From IMG/VR virus record IMGVR_UViG_2711768073_000012: a DNA stretch of 4,984 nucleotides. One strand, given 5' to 3'. Position numbers and translations under genes: made by a program. Source of the stretch: a virus (Duplodnaviria; Heunggongvirae; Uroviricota; Caudoviricetes). This document shows positions 2 through 4,984 of this stretch, in pieces. The stretch's first letter is position 1. Each line of letters starts with the position of its first letter. The notes beneath the pieces are model-generated. The model did no database searches, had not been told where the DNA came from, and saw only the letters and a program-made list of their open reading frames with translations.

Positions 2-1498
2 TTTGCTCATCCGGAAGAAATCGACACCATTGTGTCCCACACCCGCGATATTGCCATTCAGGAAGACCGCCACGAGCTGGGCAATGATATTACTCCGCGC
101 TTTAAGGTGGAGTATGTCGACGGCTCAAAAGGCACGCCAACCAGCTACATCGCCACCTACATCGGAAAGAACCTGGACAGCCGCGCCGTGGATGGCATCG
201 ACCCGAAAACGGGCAAGCCACGCGTTGACCACGAAACCGGAAAATCAATGGCCGAGAGCGTGGAACGCGCCATCGGCTGGGCACGCCTTCACCGGGTCCG
301 CCAGTTCCAGTTCTTTGGCATCCCCTCCCGTCAGGTATGGCGTGAACTCCGCCGCCTTGCCAGCCAGATGGCACGCAACCCGGAAGGCCCACAACGGCTG
401 AAGGATGATGCAATGGATGCGGTACTCGCTGCCGCTGATGCCGGGTGTTTTGCCACCTACATTGAGAAACAGGGCGGCGTACTTGTTCCACGCAAAGACT
501 ACCTGATTCGCACCGCCTACGACCTCGCAGATGAGCTGAACGATTACGGCGAACAGAGCGTACAGATTTACGGGATCTGGTCACCACTCATCGGGGAATC
601 CTCCCGTGTGTGCACGCACTCGGATAACTGGAAGCTGGTAAGACGTAAACCGGAAGCGGAAGACAGCACCCGCGAAAATGGTTTTGACCTTCAGGGCGGC
701 CCTGCCGCCCCTTGGACTCGTGGCAATAACTGTCCCCGTGTACAGGAAACGGACAACAACGGGACAGAACAGCCGGAAGAAAGGCCAGCACCGTGGCCGC
801 AGCTTCCTGACGGCGTTGACGTGAATGAATGGATGCGCTCACTGAAACGGCACGAACGCCGGGCGCTGATGCGTTCGCTGCGTGACAAACAGGCAAAAAA
901 CAGCAGTGATGAAATGCAGAACTGGACACAGAGCCGCAAACAGCCACGGCCTTTGCCTGATAACCACGAGTTACTCGCTAAAGAATGGCGGGAGTCTGCT
1001 GAATCTCTCGGCCTGCATATCGGTGAACAGCAGATGCAGCACCTGTTACGGGGCGGCAGTCTGTACGTTGACGGCAGCATCATTGCACCGCAGGGATTTG
1101 AAATTGTACGCAAACCAGATACCCGCCCGGACAGCCGAATCACGCAACTCTGGCAGCGCCTGAGCCGTAATCACGGCGTAAGCAGCACGGAGATCCGCCA
1201 TAACCCGGTCGCCAGCTATCTGGAACAGCTGGGGGCATCAGACCCCGAAGCCGCCGCACACCTGGCATCCACACTTCAGCAGGACCAGAACACCATGAAA
1301 ACCCCCGTTACCGTGCTTTCTGACATGCTGCGCGCCATCCGTGACGCAGTGCACGCACAGAGAATCAGTGAAACCACTGAACGCGCCCACCGCAAAGCAG
1401 ACCTGCTGCGGGGTAGCCTGACCAGTGGAAACAAAAAACAGACAGAAACGGGACTCACAAATCCCGTAAATGAGCAAAAAACGTGCCGCGATATATGA
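2..1498 (+). CDS. A: Replication initiation endonuclease, phage P2 gene A family (rolling-circle initiator), C-terminal part; 5' end lies outside the window
   Basis: Frame is open from nt 2 (FAHPEEIDTIV...) with no stop until TGA at 1496-1498. Contains the paired-tyrosine motif SYIATYIGKN (Y-x-x-x-Y followed by K), typical of the catalytic motif of rolling-circle initiators of the phiX174/P2 A type. Position is consistent with P2 gene order (A, then variable cargo, then cos, then Q). The other overlapping ORFs here are off-frame artefacts of GC-rich sequence. Confidence 0.8.
   Translation, partial: FAHPEEIDTIVSHTRDIAIQEDRHELGNDITPRFKVEYVDGSKGTPTSYIATYIGKNLDSRAVDGIDPKTGKPRVDHETGKSMAESVERAIGWARLHRVRQFQFFGIPSRQVWRELRRLASQMARNPEGPQRLKDDAMDAVLAAADAGCFATYIEKQGGVLVPRKDYLIRTAYDLADELNDYGEQSVQIYGIWSPLIGESSRVCTHSDNWKLVRRKPEAEDSTRENGFDLQGGPAAPWTRGNNCPRVQETDNNGTEQPEERPAPWPQLPDGVDVNEWMRSLKRHERRALMRSLRDKQAKNSSDEMQNWTQSRKQPRPLPDNHELLAKEWRESAESLGLHIGEQQMQHLLRGGSLYVDGSIIAPQGFEIVRKPDTRPDSRITQLWQRLSRNHGVSSTEIRHNPVASYLEQLGASDPEAAAHLASTLQQDQNTMKTPVTVLSDMLRAIRDAVHAQRISETTERAHRKADLLRGSLTSGNKKQTETGLTNPVNEQKTCRDI
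1448..1467. promoter_or_regulatory. Inverted repeat ACGGGA-(8 nt)-TCCCGT inside the 3' end of gene A; candidate protein-binding or ori-associated hairpin
   Basis: Seen directly: acgggactcacaaatcccgt, 6-bp arms. A related element recurs about 73 bp downstream (1521-1540). Function is inferred. Confidence 0.3.
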
Positions 1499-1520
1499 AG
1501 CGCGCACAAAACAGGCAAAA

Positions 1521-1540
1521 GCGGGATTTAAAAATCCTGT
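1521..1540. promoter_or_regulatory. Inverted repeat GGATT-(4-5 nt)-AATCC in the A/parM-like intergenic region; candidate operator or centromere-like (parC-type) site overlapping a possible promoter
   Basis: Seen directly: gcgggatttaaaaatcctgt. It resembles the 1448-1467 element (aaa-cggga...aatcc-gtaa in both). It is followed by an AT-rich stretch (ttaattaat) and a Shine-Dalgarno aggaa 7 nt before the ATG at 1575. The promoter call (-35-like tttaaa, -10-like taatta) is weak. Confidence 0.3.
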
Positions 1541-1574
1541 AACCGATTAATTAATCAACACAAGGAAAAGCGAC

Positions 1575-2537
1575 ATGAAAATTTGTATCGACGACGGCTC
1601 CACCAACATCAAGCTGGCATGGACTGAGAACGGCGAACGCCGCAACGCCATCAGCCCGAACAGCTTCAAGTCGGAATGGTCTGCGCCGTTCGGTGGCACG
1701 CAGCCCGCGAACTACATGCTTGATGGCGTGCGCTATGGTTTTGATCCGGTCAGCGATCGCTTTGTCCAGACGACCGACACGCAATACCAGTACAGCGATG
1801 TGAATATAATTGCCATTCATCACGCGCTGGTCAAATCAGGCATCACACCACAGGAAGTGGATGTGGTTGTCACCCTGCCACTGAGCGAGTATTTCGATAC
1901 AAACGCACAGCCGGACATGGCCAACATCAACCGCAAAAAAGCGAACGTCATGCGCCCGGTGGAGTACCAGAACGGCGAAGCATTCACTATCCGTAACGTA
2001 CGGGTTATGCCTGAATCCATTCCGGCTGGCTTTAAGGCACTGGCTGACATGAGTCCGTTTGAATCCCTGCTGATTGTGGATTTGGGCGGAACCACTCTGG
2101 ATGTGGCAAAGGTTCAGGGGCAACTGGCAGGTATCAGCCAGGTGTTTTGCGATCCACACGTGGGCGTTTCTCTGATGGCCGATGCCGTACTGTCGGTGAT
2201 GGCCACTAACGGTATGCGCACCAGTCACCACATCGCCAATACCATTATCGAACATCGCCATGATGAAGCCTGGTTGCGCCAGCACATCCACAATGACGCG
2301 CATTACGCCAGCCTGATGGCGGTTATTCGTGAAAAGGAAGAAACACTGAAACAACGAGTGATCCGCGCGCTGGCGGGGTTTTCGGGTTACGGGCGGGTGA
2401 TGGTTGTCGGTGGCGGGGCGGAGATTGTGGCACCCGCTATCCGCGAAGCCTGCGGAGTTAATGCGACTTTCATCGCAAAAATGATGAAGCCTGGCTGCGC
2501 CAGCACATCCACAATGACGCGCATTACGCCAGCCTGA
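1575..2537 (+). CDS. ParM/StbA-like actin-fold partition ATPase; the native C-terminus is replaced by 19 frameshifted codons because of a tandem duplication
   Basis: N-terminus MKICIDDGSTNIKLAW closely resembles the plasmid R1 ParM/StbA N-terminus (IDDGSTNIKL phosphate-1 motif). Also present: phosphate-2 motif LIVDLGGTTLDV and adenosine motif VMVVGGGAEIV. SD aggaa sits 7 nt upstream of the ATG. The last 19 residues (KMMKPGCASTSTMTRITPA) are copy 2 of the duplication read out of frame. Confidence 0.85.
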   Translation: MKICIDDGSTNIKLAWTENGERRNAISPNSFKSEWSAPFGGTQPANYMLDGVRYGFDPVSDRFVQTTDTQYQYSDVNIIAIHHALVKSGITPQEVDVVVTLPLSEYFDTNAQPDMANINRKKANVMRPVEYQNGEAFTIRNVRVMPESIPAGFKALADMSPFESLLIVDLGGTTLDVAKVQGQLAGISQVFCDPHVGVSLMADAVLSVMATNGMRTSHHIANTIIEHRHDEAWLRQHIHNDAHYASLMAVIREKEETLKQRVIRALAGFSGYGRVMVVGGGAEIVAPAIREACGVNATFIAKMMKPGCASTSTMTRITPA

Positions 2538-2697
2538 TGGCGGTTATTCGTGAAAAGGAAGAAACACTGAAACAACGCGTGATCCGCGCGCTGGCGGGTT
2601 TTTCGGGTTACGGGCGGGTGATGGTTGTCGGTGGAGGGGCGGAGATTGTGGCACCCGCTATCCGCGAAGCCTGCGGAGTTAATGCGACTTTCATCGC
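2260..2697. repeat. Imperfect direct tandem duplication: two 217-bp copies (2260-2476 and 2481-2697) separated by AAAA; period 221 bp, not a multiple of 3
   Basis: Aligned by eye. The copies differ at 4 positions (2274 t/2495 c; 2357 a/2578 c; 2378 g/2599 t; 2414 c/2635 a). All four are third-codon-position synonymous changes in the parM reading frame. CATCGC occurs at the left boundary (2253-2258) and at the end of each copy (2471-2476 and 2692-2697). Confidence 0.9.
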
Positions 2698-2755
2698 GGA
2701 CGGGGTGCCACAGTTTGCTCTGGTTAATGGGCTGTACGCAATGGACAAGGAGTAA
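2537..2755 (+). CDS. Displaced native C-terminal reading frame of the parM-like gene (72-aa ORF); likely a remnant of the duplication rather than an independent gene
   Basis: Translation MAVIREKEETLKQRVIRALAGFSGYGRVMVVGGGAEIVAPAIREACGVNATFIA is identical to residues about 248-301 of the upstream ORF. It then continues DGVPQFALVNGLYAMDKE, which resembles the ParM C-terminal end (..DLVNGMY..). Removing one repeat unit restores a single ~319-aa ParM-like ORF running 1575 to 2755. Confidence 0.45.
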   Translation: MAVIREKEETLKQRVIRALAGFSGYGRVMVVGGGAEIVAPAIREACGVNATFIADGVPQFALVNGLYAMDKE

Positions 2756-2759
2756 ACCA

Positions 2760-3071
2760 ATGACGACTCCAACCAGACGGATAAGTTTCTATCTGAAGCC
2801 CACCGCCGTCAAGAACGAAGGAGAAGCATGCGCCTGGCTGGACAGCCTTACACCAGAAGCCCGCAAAAGCGGCCAACGCGTGGCTTTTCTGGCCGGGCTG
2901 GCACTTCTGAAAATGAATCCGGCAGAGGCTTATCGACTGGCTGCATGGGCTGGTGATGAAGCGTTATCAGTGACACAAACCAGGACAGAACGCCCCGCAT
3001 CACAGCCAGTATCAACCGCACAGATAACCAGTCAGATGGCCGGAAATATCCGGGCGTTATTTCCTGAATAA
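2760..3071 (+). CDS. ParR/StbB-like partition adaptor (ribbon-helix-helix-type small DNA-binding protein), 103 aa
   Basis: ATG at 2760 is preceded by SD aaggag (2747-2752, 7-nt spacer) and starts 5 nt after the parM-frame stop. Translation MTTPTRRISFYLKP...LDSLTPEARKSGQRVAFLAGLALLK...IRALFPE resembles R1 StbB/ParR (RRTIAFKLNP...LDSIPQGERS...AALTAGLALY...LRSLFP). The 148-aa ORF in the track (from 2625) begins inside repeat copy 2 in a third frame, so 2760 is the preferred start. Confidence 0.7.
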   Translation: MTTPTRRISFYLKPTAVKNEGEACAWLDSLTPEARKSGQRVAFLAGLALLKMNPAEAYRLAAWAGDEALSVTQTRTERPASQPVSTAQITSQMAGNIRALFPE

Positions 3072-3079
3072 CACAACAT

Positions 3080-3097
3080 CAGGGCGAGTTCGCCCTG
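3080..3097. promoter_or_regulatory. Palindrome CAGGGCGA-gt-TCGCCCTG directly downstream of the parR-like gene; hairpin or protein-binding site
   Basis: Seen directly. The same 8-bp arms recur at 3738-3763. There is no T-tract after it, so it is not a classical intrinsic terminator. Confidence 0.4.
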
Positions 3098-3134
3098 CTC
3101 TCCACCTCAGAACATAAACAAGGAGAACGACTTA

Positions 3135-3725
3135 ATGAGCGAAATCAACTATCAGGCATTACGTGAACGTTATTCACCTGTGCCAGTACCGAAATGCCCT
3201 ATTTGCGGCGAGGAAATGTCAATTCAGCGAATATCTGGAGCACAGGTTGTTTATGCCTGCTCCGGTTATGGTGATGATGGAGATTTCAAAATTGGCCAAA
3301 CTCTTGCCGACGAACATTATGAAAAATCACGCGTAACAGTGTTGGATGTCGGGGATCCTGAAGTATTGGCGCTACTTGATTGGCTGGAAACCAAAGACAA
3401 CCGAATCGCTGAACTGGAAAAAATCGCCACTGACTATGCACTTAAATTCCAGAAAGCACAGGACGCATTAAAGTATGCCGCTTTGCTGCATAGCAGGACG
3501 GCGCAACAAACAAATAATTTTGCAGTATCGCTTCCGGACATAAGCGAATATTTCATTAATGACGTATTTCAGCCCTTGCGATACGAGCGGGATGTTGAAA
3601 GAGCCATCATAAAGGCTGGCGGAAAAGCATTGTGGCAGGAGAAACACGAGGACAGAACGCATCAGTCCTGCGATGTAAATCGTGGATGGTTTAGCCCACT
3701 GACGACAGATAAAAATAACACCTGA
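3135..3725 (+). CDS. Ead/Ea22-like family protein (prophage early-region protein of unknown function) with an N-terminal CPIC motif and a central coiled-coil-like segment
   Basis: ATG at 3135 with SD aaggag 9 nt upstream. N-terminus MSEINYQALRE and the segment PEVLALLDWLETKDNRIAELE resemble, from memory, the conserved N-terminus and ..VLALLDELEAAEKRIAELE.. segment of Ead/Ea22-like prophage proteins. Cysteines at residues 21, 24 and 42. Codon composition is visibly more AT-rich than the flanking genes. Confidence 0.5.
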   Translation: MSEINYQALRERYSPVPVPKCPICGEEMSIQRISGAQVVYACSGYGDDGDFKIGQTLADEHYEKSRVTVLDVGDPEVLALLDWLETKDNRIAELEKIATDYALKFQKAQDALKYAALLHSRTAQQTNNFAVSLPDISEYFINDVFQPLRYERDVERAIIKAGGKALWQEKHEDRTHQSCDVNRGWFSPLTTDKNNT

Positions 3726-3737
3726 TCCCCCTCAAAC

Positions 3738-3763
3738 CAGGGCGATAATCGCGCATCGCCCTG
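3738..3763. promoter_or_regulatory. Second copy of the CAGGGCGA...TCGCCCTG inverted repeat (10-nt spacer), directly downstream of the Ea22-like gene
   Basis: Seen directly: cagggcgataatcgcgcatcgccctg. Together with 3080-3097 it brackets the Ea22-like ORF. Confidence 0.4.
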
Positions 3764-3764
3764 C

Positions 3765-3792
3765 TGCACAATAGTGCACAAGTTTGCACAAT
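3765..3792. repeat. Three phased direct repeats TGCACAA at 3765, 3775 and 3786 (10-11 bp spacing, about one helical turn); candidate protein-binding array
   Basis: Seen directly: tgcacaatagtgcacaagtttgcacaat, followed by a T7 tract. Confidence 0.4.
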
Positions 3793-3834
3793 TTTTTTGA
3801 ACGACTTTTTACCCTTCCGGCCCGCATGGCGGCT

Positions 3835-3853
3835 GGATCCGTCAAGGATCCGT
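3835..3853. repeat. Direct repeat GGATCCGT x2 with 11-bp period
   Basis: Seen directly: ggatccgtcaaggatccgt. Confidence 0.4.
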
Positions 3854-3861
3854 GCGTGCAC

Positions 3862-3886
3862 AAAAAAACGCGCTTTTTCTGCGCGC
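3862..3886 (-). terminator. Candidate rho-independent terminator for leftward (- strand) transcription
   Basis: The - strand reads CGCGC-agaaaaa-GCGCG followed by TTTTTTT: a 5-6 bp all-GC stem, 7-nt loop and U7 tract. It lies about 330 nt downstream of the portal stop, so its target transcript is uncertain. Confidence 0.4.
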
Positions 3887-3910
3887 AGGTGACGGGGGAA
3901 CAGCCCGCGT

Positions 3911-3937
3911 TTCAGGGGGTAAATAGCATCCCCTGAA
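3911..3937. promoter_or_regulatory. Inverted repeat TTCAGGGG-(11 nt)-CCCCTGAA
   Basis: Seen directly. One of several palindromes in the presumed cos-proximal region; another is tcacgc-tga-gcgtga at 3974-3988. Confidence 0.3.
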
Positions 3938-4163
3938 CGATGTCGCAGCGACACAACAGAATGGCTGTATTTCTCACGCTGAGCGTGAAAAAGACGTGAG
4001 GGCTTTTGATTTGATGGGTGGCAGATAAGGCCGTCAAAATCGCACTGAGGCGGCGAGAACATGCAGTCAACGCGGTGGGATTGCGTAAGAGTCTGACCGC
4101 CGATGATGACAATAAGCAGAAAAGCGTCGTGAAATTATCTGATTGATACAGGAGCTGGAGAGT

Positions 4164-4188
4164 CGGGGCATAAATTTTTTATGCCCCG
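4164..4188 (-). terminator. Near-perfect palindrome CGGGGCAT-aaatttttt-ATGCCCCG 27 nt downstream of the portal stop; candidate transcription terminator or binding site
   Basis: Seen directly: 8-bp GC-rich arms with an A/T-only centre. There is no external U-tract on either strand, so the terminator assignment is tentative. Confidence 0.35.
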
Positions 4189-4214: not shown

Positions 4215-4984
4215 TCAGGATGTGGGCTGGGTATCTAGCAGTGCGTAAGGGTTAAAGCGGATCACCTCTTCGCCAAGCCAGTCATTGATGTGCTTCATGG
4301 CCTCCATGACGGGCATCAGCTCGTTAATTGCGTAAACCCGCGCGGCCTTCTCCACATCACCAAACGCACTTTTTTCGCCCGGCATCGCCCCCATCAGTTG
4401 CGGCGGAACGCGGTGCGCAGCCAGCACATCATCACGGGATGCCGCCTTAACATTCATGAACTCATCCTTTGCGGTGATCTGCTGGAACGGCAAAATTTGC
4501 ACCCCCTCTTTGCCCCCGTTGGGCGCATGAATGAGCACATTTTTAAACGCACCACCACCACGTGCACCCTGTAACGTTTCTTTCAGGGAGTCCATGCTTT
4601 CGCGGTTTACCTGCGCTGCTCCGATGTAGATGATGCACCCGGCGTGGGATCCATTGTCGTAGTACAGTTTTCTGAACATGTCCGCCGAATGAGACAGGCT
4701 GGCCGAGAGTAATGCGCCGAGATATTCCGGCATGCCGTAGATTTCCTGGTTAATATCCGGATTCATCAGGTGGCACACTTTGCCAGGGCGAAACTGAAAC
4801 GCGTCCTTGCCGTCCTGTACATACCACCATGATTCAAGATCGCTTCCGCGTCGCATGTATTTCGCCAGTGCGTGCCGTAATTTAAGCGGTTCGCCGAGCA
4901 TATTGCTTCGAAGCTCAAGGAATGCGTTACCGAACACAAACCAGTCCAGCGCCAGCGCCGAGAAATCCTGCCGGGAAAGCAGCG
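4215..4984 (-). CDS. Q: Phage portal protein (P2 gene Q type), C-terminal ~255 codons; N-terminus lies beyond the window end
   Basis: The - strand frame is open from the window edge (..LLSRQDFSALALDWFVFGNAFLE..) to TGA at 4215-4217. It contains the HRVPPQLMGAMPG motif, which resembles the conserved (F/H)RVPPxLxG signature of phage portal proteins. Leftward orientation next to the cos-type region and opposite gene A matches P2 synteny. Confidence 0.75.
   Translation of the reverse strand, partial: LLSRQDFSALALDWFVFGNAFLELRSNMLGEPLKLRHALAKYMRRGSDLESWWYVQDGKDAFQFRPGKVCHLMNPDINQEIYGMPEYLGALLSASLSHSADMFRKLYYDNGSHAGCIIYIGAAQVNRESMDSLKETLQGARGGGAFKNVLIHAPNGGKEGVQILPFQQITAKDEFMNVKAASRDDVLAAHRVPPQLMGAMPGEKSAFGDVEKAARVYAINELMPVMEAMKHINDWLGEEVIRFNPYALLDTQPTS

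Follow-up and report, generated by a model that had tools for sequence, protein, structure and literature searches.

The 4,984-nucleotide stretch of viral DNA analyzed here (IMG/VR record IMGVR_UViG_2711768073_000012, referred to below in its full length as the window) is the part of a P88-like prophage (Xuanwuvirus, Peduoviridae) that runs from gpA to gpQ, and carries a parM-parR partition module of the plasmid R1 type between the replication endonuclease gene A and the portal gene Q. Comparison with complete genomes and viral contigs indicated that this gene pair is almost certainly a fixed part of the backbone of the P88-like lineage and not sporadic cargo of the hotspot in which it has been described. 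In the window itself, parM is frameshifted by a tandem duplication that is private to this sequence. The occurrence of ParM and ParR at this locus is already known, as Rousset et al. 2022 reported a putative plasmid partitioning system at the same gpA-gpQ locus in approximately one in four P2-like phages of E. coli (PMC9122126); the surprise expressed in a sequence-only reading of this DNA at finding a partition module in a P2-like phage therefore did not concern a new observation. What is added here is the backbone status of the module, the retention of its position across genera, purifying selection, two dyads in the place of iterons, a short and polymorphic ParR, and the repeated, independent inactivation of parM.

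The identity of the module as a ParM/ParR pair is close to certain. The parM frame (1575-2537, plus strand; a 320-codon open reading frame (ORF) in its frameshifted form) encodes an R1-type actin-like ATPase that matched the Pfam families StbA_N (3.8e-82) and ParM C-terminal domain (9.5e-62), and a search of the PDB matched residues 2-293 to the solved structures of R1 ParM (1mwk, 5aey; E=6e-90). The ATP-binding motifs DDGSTNIK, MPESIPAG, DLGGTTLD and GGGAE are undamaged, with 90-100% conservation across an alignment of 107 family sequences, and give the protein the phosphate-1, connect, phosphate-2 and adenosine motifs of the actin-fold ATPase of a type II partition system. Directly 3' of parM lies parR/stbB (2760-3071, plus strand), which encodes a 103-aa adaptor matching Pfam Plasmid_stab_B (PF10784; 3.1e-23) and PHROG 2515, 'partition protein' (1.7e-57). 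As in other type II systems, the adaptor is predicted to combine an N-terminal DNA-binding region with a C-terminal ParM-binding tail; the conserved N-terminal strand-helix region (strand RRISFYLKP) and the C-terminal N-x-x-x-L-F-P tail are both common to plasmid ParRs, and residues R6, F10, Y11, P14, R35, R40, G46, A48, L49, N96 and F101 are invariant in the alignment of phage and plasmid ParRs. A sequence search of the PDB with ParR gave no match, and the fold of the adaptor and its contact with ParM are predicted from these shared features. Both proteins have "partition protein" families in PHROGs and are named in RefSeq, and the records of P88 and other relatives of the window already place a "plasmid segregation protein ParM" and a "partition protein" at the same spot.

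Altogether, the features that the sequence-only reading had proposed for this stretch were all present where it had placed them, and none can be explained as a chance match. Its assignments of the two products to the ParM family (with all actin-fold ATP motifs) and to the ParR/StbB family were supported by the Pfam, PDB and motif comparisons given above, as was its assignment of the downstream gene to the Ead/Ea22 family, which scored above the gathering threshold. The flanks that it had taken for P2-type A and Q genes matched Phage_GPA on the left (4.4e-13) and Phage_portal on the right (1.6e-16). Profile searches therefore bore out the reading on both of the points that it had named as able to overturn it, the family membership of the two products and the nature of the flanking genes.

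The evidence for a backbone module came from the two junctions of the module, which were used as queries against 5426 complete E. coli genomes. The A-parM junction query (window 1100-1900) matched 1371 of these genomes, 1287 of which (94%) gave a single match that reached from the 3' end of gpA into the 5' end of parM. The parR-Ea22 junction query (window 2700-3500) matched 1336 genomes, in only 204 of which were both genes spanned. Among the 80 best-scoring, near-identical loci of IMG/VR, gpA was found in 78, ParR in 79 and Ea22 in 22, and the distance from parR to Q ranged from approximately 950 to 4150 bp. The order of elements was fixed in every locus examined: gene A, 76 bp, parM (960 nt), 4 bp, parR (312-315 nt), variable genes, and Q. 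These loci included those of O157:H7, ST131, O55:H7 and a commensal strain, as well as copies on an IncC plasmid and an IncHI2 plasmid. Because the A-parM junction is kept whereas the parR-Ea22 junction and the parR-to-Q length vary, these comparisons place the start of the variable slot inside or after parR and mark the Ea22 gene as cargo of the window phage. The description of the whole parMR module as cargo of the A-to-Q variable locus thus holds for the Ea22 gene, with its 204 spanned junctions of 1336, but not for parM-parR. The survey of parMR-like genes between A and Q that had been suggested as a check found them constant in the P88-like lineage and present in four other genera too, with which the sporadic-cargo reading falls. 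In total, the module is carried by about a quarter of the complete E. coli genomes, including the O157, O26, O103, O111 and ST131 strains sampled.

The inner edge of the variable region was further located by the variation of ParR. In many E. coli genomes the DNA similarity to the window ends approximately 55 nt into parR, and the mosaic boundary of the hotspot appears to lie inside this gene. The 80 best IMG/VR loci encode 47 ParR protein alleles of at least three divergent types next to ParMs that are 98-100% identical, and the variation is concentrated in the linker. This polymorphism fits with a location inside parR of the breakpoints at which cargo is exchanged by recombination. The P88-type ParR is also shorter than plasmid ParRs, by approximately 25-30 middle residues.

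Relatives of the module outside the P88-like lineage were obtained from a search of 5.8 billion proteins. The P88-type ParMs share at least 91% identity and are followed by a gap, after which the next relatives are those of Hafnia (62%), Plesiomonas (62%), Serratia (58%) and Enterobacter ludwigii (54%). In each of these four genera, parM occupies the gpA-portal interval of a P2-like prophage, with a StbB-family gene behind it and then variable cargo, for example HicAB or a KAP NTPase. The relatives looked up at 52% identity or less were found beside Rep3, UmuDC, ParAB, anti-restriction or Tra genes, which are plasmid or integrative and conjugative element (ICE) contexts. In a neighbor-joining tree, calculated without bootstrap, the phage-context ParMs formed two adjacent clades that stood apart from the plasmid ParMs, including that of R1.

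Within the P88-like lineage, the median dN/dS of parM was 0.074 (47 allele pairs), which points to strong purifying selection on the gene. An intact 319-aa parM ORF was present in all of the 80 best IMG/VR loci, a sample that is biased to intact genes by its selection for score and gives no pseudogene rate. A separate contig scan with a single ParM query returned only near-identical relatives, at 3 loci. As a side observation, contig NZ_JBQPOM010000071.1, which carries the Gram-positive label 'Vagococcus sp. WN89Y', has a parM that shares 98% identity with its E. coli phage counterpart, most likely through assembly contamination or mislabelling.

Upstream of parM, the expected plasmid-type centromere was replaced by a simpler arrangement. 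A parC consisting of about ten direct 10-11-bp iterons around the promoter was found neither in the window nor in the other phage loci, and the same script detected iteron arrays in 3 plasmid/ICE relatives. Two 18-bp dyads were present instead: dyad 1 (CGGGACTCACAAATCCCG; 1449-1466) lies at -126 from the parM ATG inside the 3' end of gene A, where it falls within the last codons of the gpA fragment, and dyad 2 (CGGGATTTAAAAATCCTG; 1522-1539) lies at -53, 73 bp (approximately 7 helical turns) past dyad 1. The pattern CGGGA-N8-10-TCCYG occurs only at these two places in the 42-kb locus holding the prophage, against 0.29 occurrences expected, and both dyads fit it in 72 of the 78 IMG/VR loci with enough upstream sequence. 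The 76-nt intergenic region takes 35 distinct forms in the IMG/VR loci, among which the dyad half-sites are near-constant and their spacers vary. The Plesiomonas and Hafnia phages have a different upstream gene, yet GGGA...CCC at both positions and an ATTAATYAA box just ahead of the ribosome-binding site are invariant in them. From their position and conservation, the two dyads are candidates for the site bound by ParR, serving as centromere or operator. Dyad 2 lies just upstream of the conserved ATTAATYAA box (approximately 1546-1558) and overlaps a weak -35-like TTTAAA; the promoter match at this place, read by eye, covers 8 of 12 positions. A consensus sigma-70 promoter scan upstream of parM gave nothing above the threshold of the tool on the plus strand, and no terminator-like site was found on this strand between A and parM, making co-transcription of the module with the early replication operon possible.

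The damage to parM that had been noticed from the letters alone was borne out. The first copy of the duplication (2260-2476, plus strand; 217 nt) is joined by an AAAA filler (2477-2480, plus strand), read directly in the sequence, to the second copy (2481-2697, plus strand; 217 nt), so that 217 nt and the 4-nt filler give a period of 221 nt. The two copies differ by 4 mismatches; copy 2 is identical to the population consensus, and copy 1 has 4 differences from it. The frame shifts past ParM residue 301, leaving residues 1-301 native and followed by 19 unrelated out-of-frame residues and a stop, and the window thus holds no full-length in-frame parM. The C-terminal 18 residues (DGVPQFALVNGLYAMDKE) are lost, and with them residues whose conservation in the family reaches 98-99% (Q306, L309, V310 and G312). 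Deleting either copy (221 nt) restores the native 319-aa ParM of all relatives. Since the duplication removes a conserved C-terminal helix region of ParM, the module encoded by the window copy is most likely non-functional.

The native C-terminus remains as an orphan 72-codon ORF (2537-2755, plus strand) corresponding to ParM residues 248-319, which matched the Pfam ParM C-terminal domain at 3.4e-24 (profile positions 90-159 of 159). Its ATG overlaps the stop codon of the frameshifted parM (TGATG), and an identical 72-aa ORF has been called in other genomes in which parM is broken upstream.

The duplication is private to the window sequence, since its junction was present in none of the 5426 complete E. 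coli genomes, where every match consisted of two separate pieces, and the exact frameshifted ParM was absent from a collection of approximately 15 billion proteins and from a gene-position index. Copy 1 has no exact match in these genomes either, with O121 strains providing the best (99.1%). Its four differences (2274, 2357, 2378 and 2414) are all synonymous in the parM frame, which suggests that the template of copy 1 was another natural, unsampled allele rather than a product of random error, or else that the assembly is chimeric. The duplication may accordingly be a genuine recent rearrangement, in which two co-resident prophages may have taken part, or it may have arisen as an artefact of assembly.

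Other broken copies of parM circulate in E. coli. Independent knock-outs include W233* (TGG to TAG) in several assemblies, the insertion of one G after nt 675 in at least 20 samples, and a 22-nt deletion. One further allele is rearranged by a 70-nt local duplication (parM 732-801), which lies within the stretch duplicated in the window. These broken copies persist in chromosomal prophages, from which it follows that the module is dispensable for the integrated prophage and that selection must operate during the free state of the phage genome, which follows infection or induction.

On these grounds we tentatively propose, with a confidence that stops somewhat short of an even chance, that, during establishment or lytic growth, the module positions or segregates phage genomes in their free circular form. 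ParR dimers would attach to the pair of CGGGA-N8-TCCYG dyads that closely precedes parM, and ParR-capped filaments of ATP-bound ParM would push or position the copies of the phage genome while these are in the free-circle state, that is, after infection and before integration, or after induction in rolling-circle replication and packaging. A broader version of this proposal, that a large P2-family clade across Enterobacterales has vertically kept a phage-adapted ParM/ParR with a minimal two-dyad centromere acting on free circular genomes in establishment or lytic rolling-circle replication, is put forward as a possibility that we regard as doubtful, more so than the narrower proposal.

Several observations weigh against this proposal. 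Phages P2 and 186 replicate by rolling circle and package their genomes without a partition module, and any benefit must therefore be quantitative. The persistence of parM knock-outs in the population indicates that loss is tolerated, at least in lysogens. The dyads could be RNA hairpins, as together they fold with z=-3.6, or could serve another regulator. The tree that separates phage from plasmid ParMs has no bootstrap support, and the duplication may have been introduced by the assembly, which would mean that the parM of the window is in fact unbroken. Finally, a functional study of ParM/ParR in P2-like phages (Xuanwuvirus, Peduoviridae) was not found in the literature searchable here.

The alternative with the best standing, although we consider it unlikely, is that the module allows the phage to persist as a low-copy episome, in a phage-plasmid or carrier state, at least in those hosts or under those conditions in which integration fails, as Rousset et al. 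2022 suggested (PMC9122126). This is in line with the close homology of the module to a bona fide plasmid partition system and with the existence of the PLSDB record pZ1323PEC0009-2, a circular 34.4-kb molecule with a complete P88-like genome. This record carries an integrase, however, and could be an excised replicating genome. The other PLSDB matches that were opened (one 1.4-Mb 'plasmid' record excluded) were prophages inserted in IncC and IncHI2 plasmids and a linear contig, and PLSDB matches were therefore rejected as evidence for a plasmid lifestyle. An integrase and Cox were present in every element examined, and two parM-specific queries of the complete E. coli genomes placed 1531 of 1533 and 1408 of 1410 copies on the chromosome (approximately 99.9%). 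The elements accordingly show the marks neither of an autonomous low-copy replicon nor of a phage-plasmid, meaning an extrachromosomal prophage. In addition, P2 replicates by a rolling-circle mechanism that needs gpA from the repressed early operon, and such gpA-dependent replication is ill-suited to a quiescent plasmid state; the broken-parM copies, moreover, are still stably inherited. Lysogens of PhiSM, for which RefSeq lists a parM as in P88, were shown experimentally to integrate at pdxB (PMC6456863). From the integrases, the chromosomal copies, the PLSDB matches and the integration of PhiSM, we conclude that a stable plasmid-prophage state is not the norm, and the option of a stable episome raised by the sequence-only reading is left with little support.

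It is appreciably less probable that the module serves in defence, exclusion or incompatibility, with ParR, ParM and dyads expressed or carried by the prophage hindering incoming phages, satellites or plasmids through partition-type incompatibility or filament-based exclusion. The module adjoins a documented anti-phage hotspot (PMC9122126), and the many ParR alleles of the best 80 loci are reminiscent of arms-race loci. The linker-centred variation of ParR can, however, be explained by cargo-exchange breakpoints inside parR, and selection on ParM is purifying and not diversifying. Furthermore, the module is lineage-fixed, unlike its fast-changing neighbour cargo, and neither ParM, ParR and Ea22 nor the product of a 123-aa antisense ORF discussed below matched any PADLOC defence model.

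The least probable alternative, to which we attach slightly less weight again, is that the module is a functionless relic of an old plasmid-phage recombination retained by linkage to gene A; the frameshifted window copy, the several independent knock-out alleles in circulation and the ability of P2 and 186 to do without a module all speak for it, but a neutral relic would not stay intact through the divergence of ParMs to 54-62% identity, over which ATP motifs, ParR motifs, dyads and position were kept, nor does a dN/dS of approximately 0.07 with a 319-aa ORF intact in the best 80 IMG/VR loci agree with it. Decay, as suggested in the sequence-only reading, hence describes the window copy and a minority of other copies, and not the lineage.

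The remainder of the window is consistent with its place in a P2-like phage. The whole window is 96-97% identical to P88 and its relatives (96.7% for P88 itself); by individual matches, phages P88, PhiSM (from Citrobacter), 520873 and 503458 share 95-97% identity over 81-87% of its length, and P88_4B11 shares 98.6% over 76%. P88 and P88_4B11 are classified in the genus Xuanwuvirus, family Peduoviridae. Without the 221 bases of copy 1 and the filler, the window shows 100% identity with a prophage of E. coli O103 RM8385 between base 1 and approximately 4250 (approximately 4.2 kb). The matching RM8385 region is a complete P2-type prophage adjoining yecA, with integrase, repressor, A, parM, parR, Ea22, Q, P, and capsid and tail genes, and its neighbouring genes encode P2-family capsid, scaffold, terminase and tail proteins. 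The element therefore has the features by which a P2-like phage is recognized, namely gpA and gpQ around the cos-proximal locus and P2-type morphogenesis genes.

The 3' part of gene A occupies positions 2-1498 (plus strand), and the gene starts to the left of the window; the Phage_GPA match falls on residues 2-51 of the encoded fragment. Relatives in RefSeq label the product 'replication endonuclease', and P88-type gpA is approximately 940 aa long. This is far longer than the 321-position Phage_GPA profile, and approximately 440 C-terminal residues (window 185-1498, fragment residues 52-488) contain no Pfam domain. On the other side, the 3' part of the portal gene Q (4215-4984, minus strand) continues to the right of the window, and RefSeq relatives have a 348-aa portal at this position. 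Both ORFs overrun the ends of the window, and the limits 32-1498 and 4215-4937 given for them by the ORF lister are an artefact. A perfect 11-bp inverted repeat (4164-4188; CGGGGCATAAA TTT TTTATGCCCCG), approximately 27 bp downstream of the portal stop, looks like an ordinary terminator closing the Q operon.

A probable genome terminus (cos region) was located at 3809-3810 from the linear GenBank record of P88_4B11, which ends at 3809 and restarts at 3810 (TGCCCTTCCAGCCCGCGTGGCGGCTGGATCC...); the physical end of the genome would then lie approximately 740 bp past parR. This region is overlapped by the antisense ORF of 123 codons (3691-4062, minus strand), which spans the Ea22-to-Q spacer. The ORF had no match in Pfam, PHROG or PADLOC and is probably not a gene.

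The Ead/Ea22-like gene itself (3135-3725, plus strand) matched Pfam Ead_Ea22 (PF13935) at 2.4e-31, with 109.6 bits against a cut-off of 27. Part of it (window approximately 3120-3350) shares 82-85% identity with ead/Ea22-like genes carried by numerous plasmids of E. coli, E. albertii and E. fergusonii, most of which measure 100-120 kb; this size suggests phage-plasmids, and the cargo gene would thus circulate between types of temperate phage. Sequence scans revealed a GC-rich palindrome at the left boundary of the Ea22 cassette (CAGGGCGAGTTCGCCCTG; 3080-3097) and a second copy at its right boundary (CAGGGCGAT...ATCGCCCTG; 3738-3763). In the best 80 IMG/VR loci, this palindrome (CAGGGCGA...TCGCCCTG) was seen only just past parR and 600-1500 nt beyond, and it was present in 22 of them, the same number as have Ea22. 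The palindromes may be the borders of an exchangeable cassette, or a terminator.

For the window, these results amount to an ordinary, already-annotated feature with a private inactivating duplication. For surveys of hotspots in P2-like phages, they imply that parM-parR should be counted as backbone and that the limits of the variable slot should be set at parR and Q. If the module acts on free phage circles, P2-type phage biology would include a cytoskeletal step served by a compact two-site centromere; if it allows a plasmid state, P2-like phages would have to be reconsidered as facultative phage-plasmids.

The closest annotated counterparts are the parM/parR genes of P88, PhiSM, 520873 and P88_4B11, which constitute the same module at the same locus with 95-99% DNA identity and from which the window copy alone is set apart by its 221-bp duplication. 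Published notes on these genes, namely those of Rousset et al. 2022 and of the PhiSM paper, in which the gene is counted as cargo (PMC6456863), treat the module as cargo of the hotspot, whereas the present data describe it as lineage backbone. With the ParMRC system of plasmids R1/NR1 (StbA/StbB), the module shares the parM-then-parR order, the Pfam family of ParR, the nucleotide-binding motifs of ParM, and the N-terminal strand and C-terminal tail of ParR. It differs from that system in residing on an integrating phage and not on a plasmid, in having two dyads 73 bp apart in place of the 10-11-bp iteron array, in the shorter middle part of ParR, in its 76-bp intergenic region directly past gene A and, in the window, in the frameshift of parM.

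Among temperate phages, the phage-plasmids P1 (ParAB), N15 (SopAB) and the SSU5-like group also carry plasmid-type segregation genes. These are extrachromosomal and mostly use ParA-type systems, whereas P88-like phages integrate and carry an actin-type system. A functional model for the P88-type module is provided by AlpAC of the Corynebacterium glutamicum prophage CGP3, where filaments are linked to excised circular phage DNA via an adaptor and both proteins are needed for efficient replication (PMC4446434). Host and phage type are unrelated, and AlpC is described as a distant actin-like protein and not as an R1-type ParM; its function was shown experimentally, whereas the role of the P88-type module is proposed by analogy. 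Both systems nevertheless pair a prophage-encoded actin-like ATPase with a DNA-binding adaptor, and AlpA, like the arrangement suggested here for ParR, has its sites upstream of its own operon. If the proposed role is correct, the P88-type module would give an integrating Gram-negative phage a step of actin-based DNA positioning in its life cycle, similar to the one served by AlpAC in Corynebacterium.

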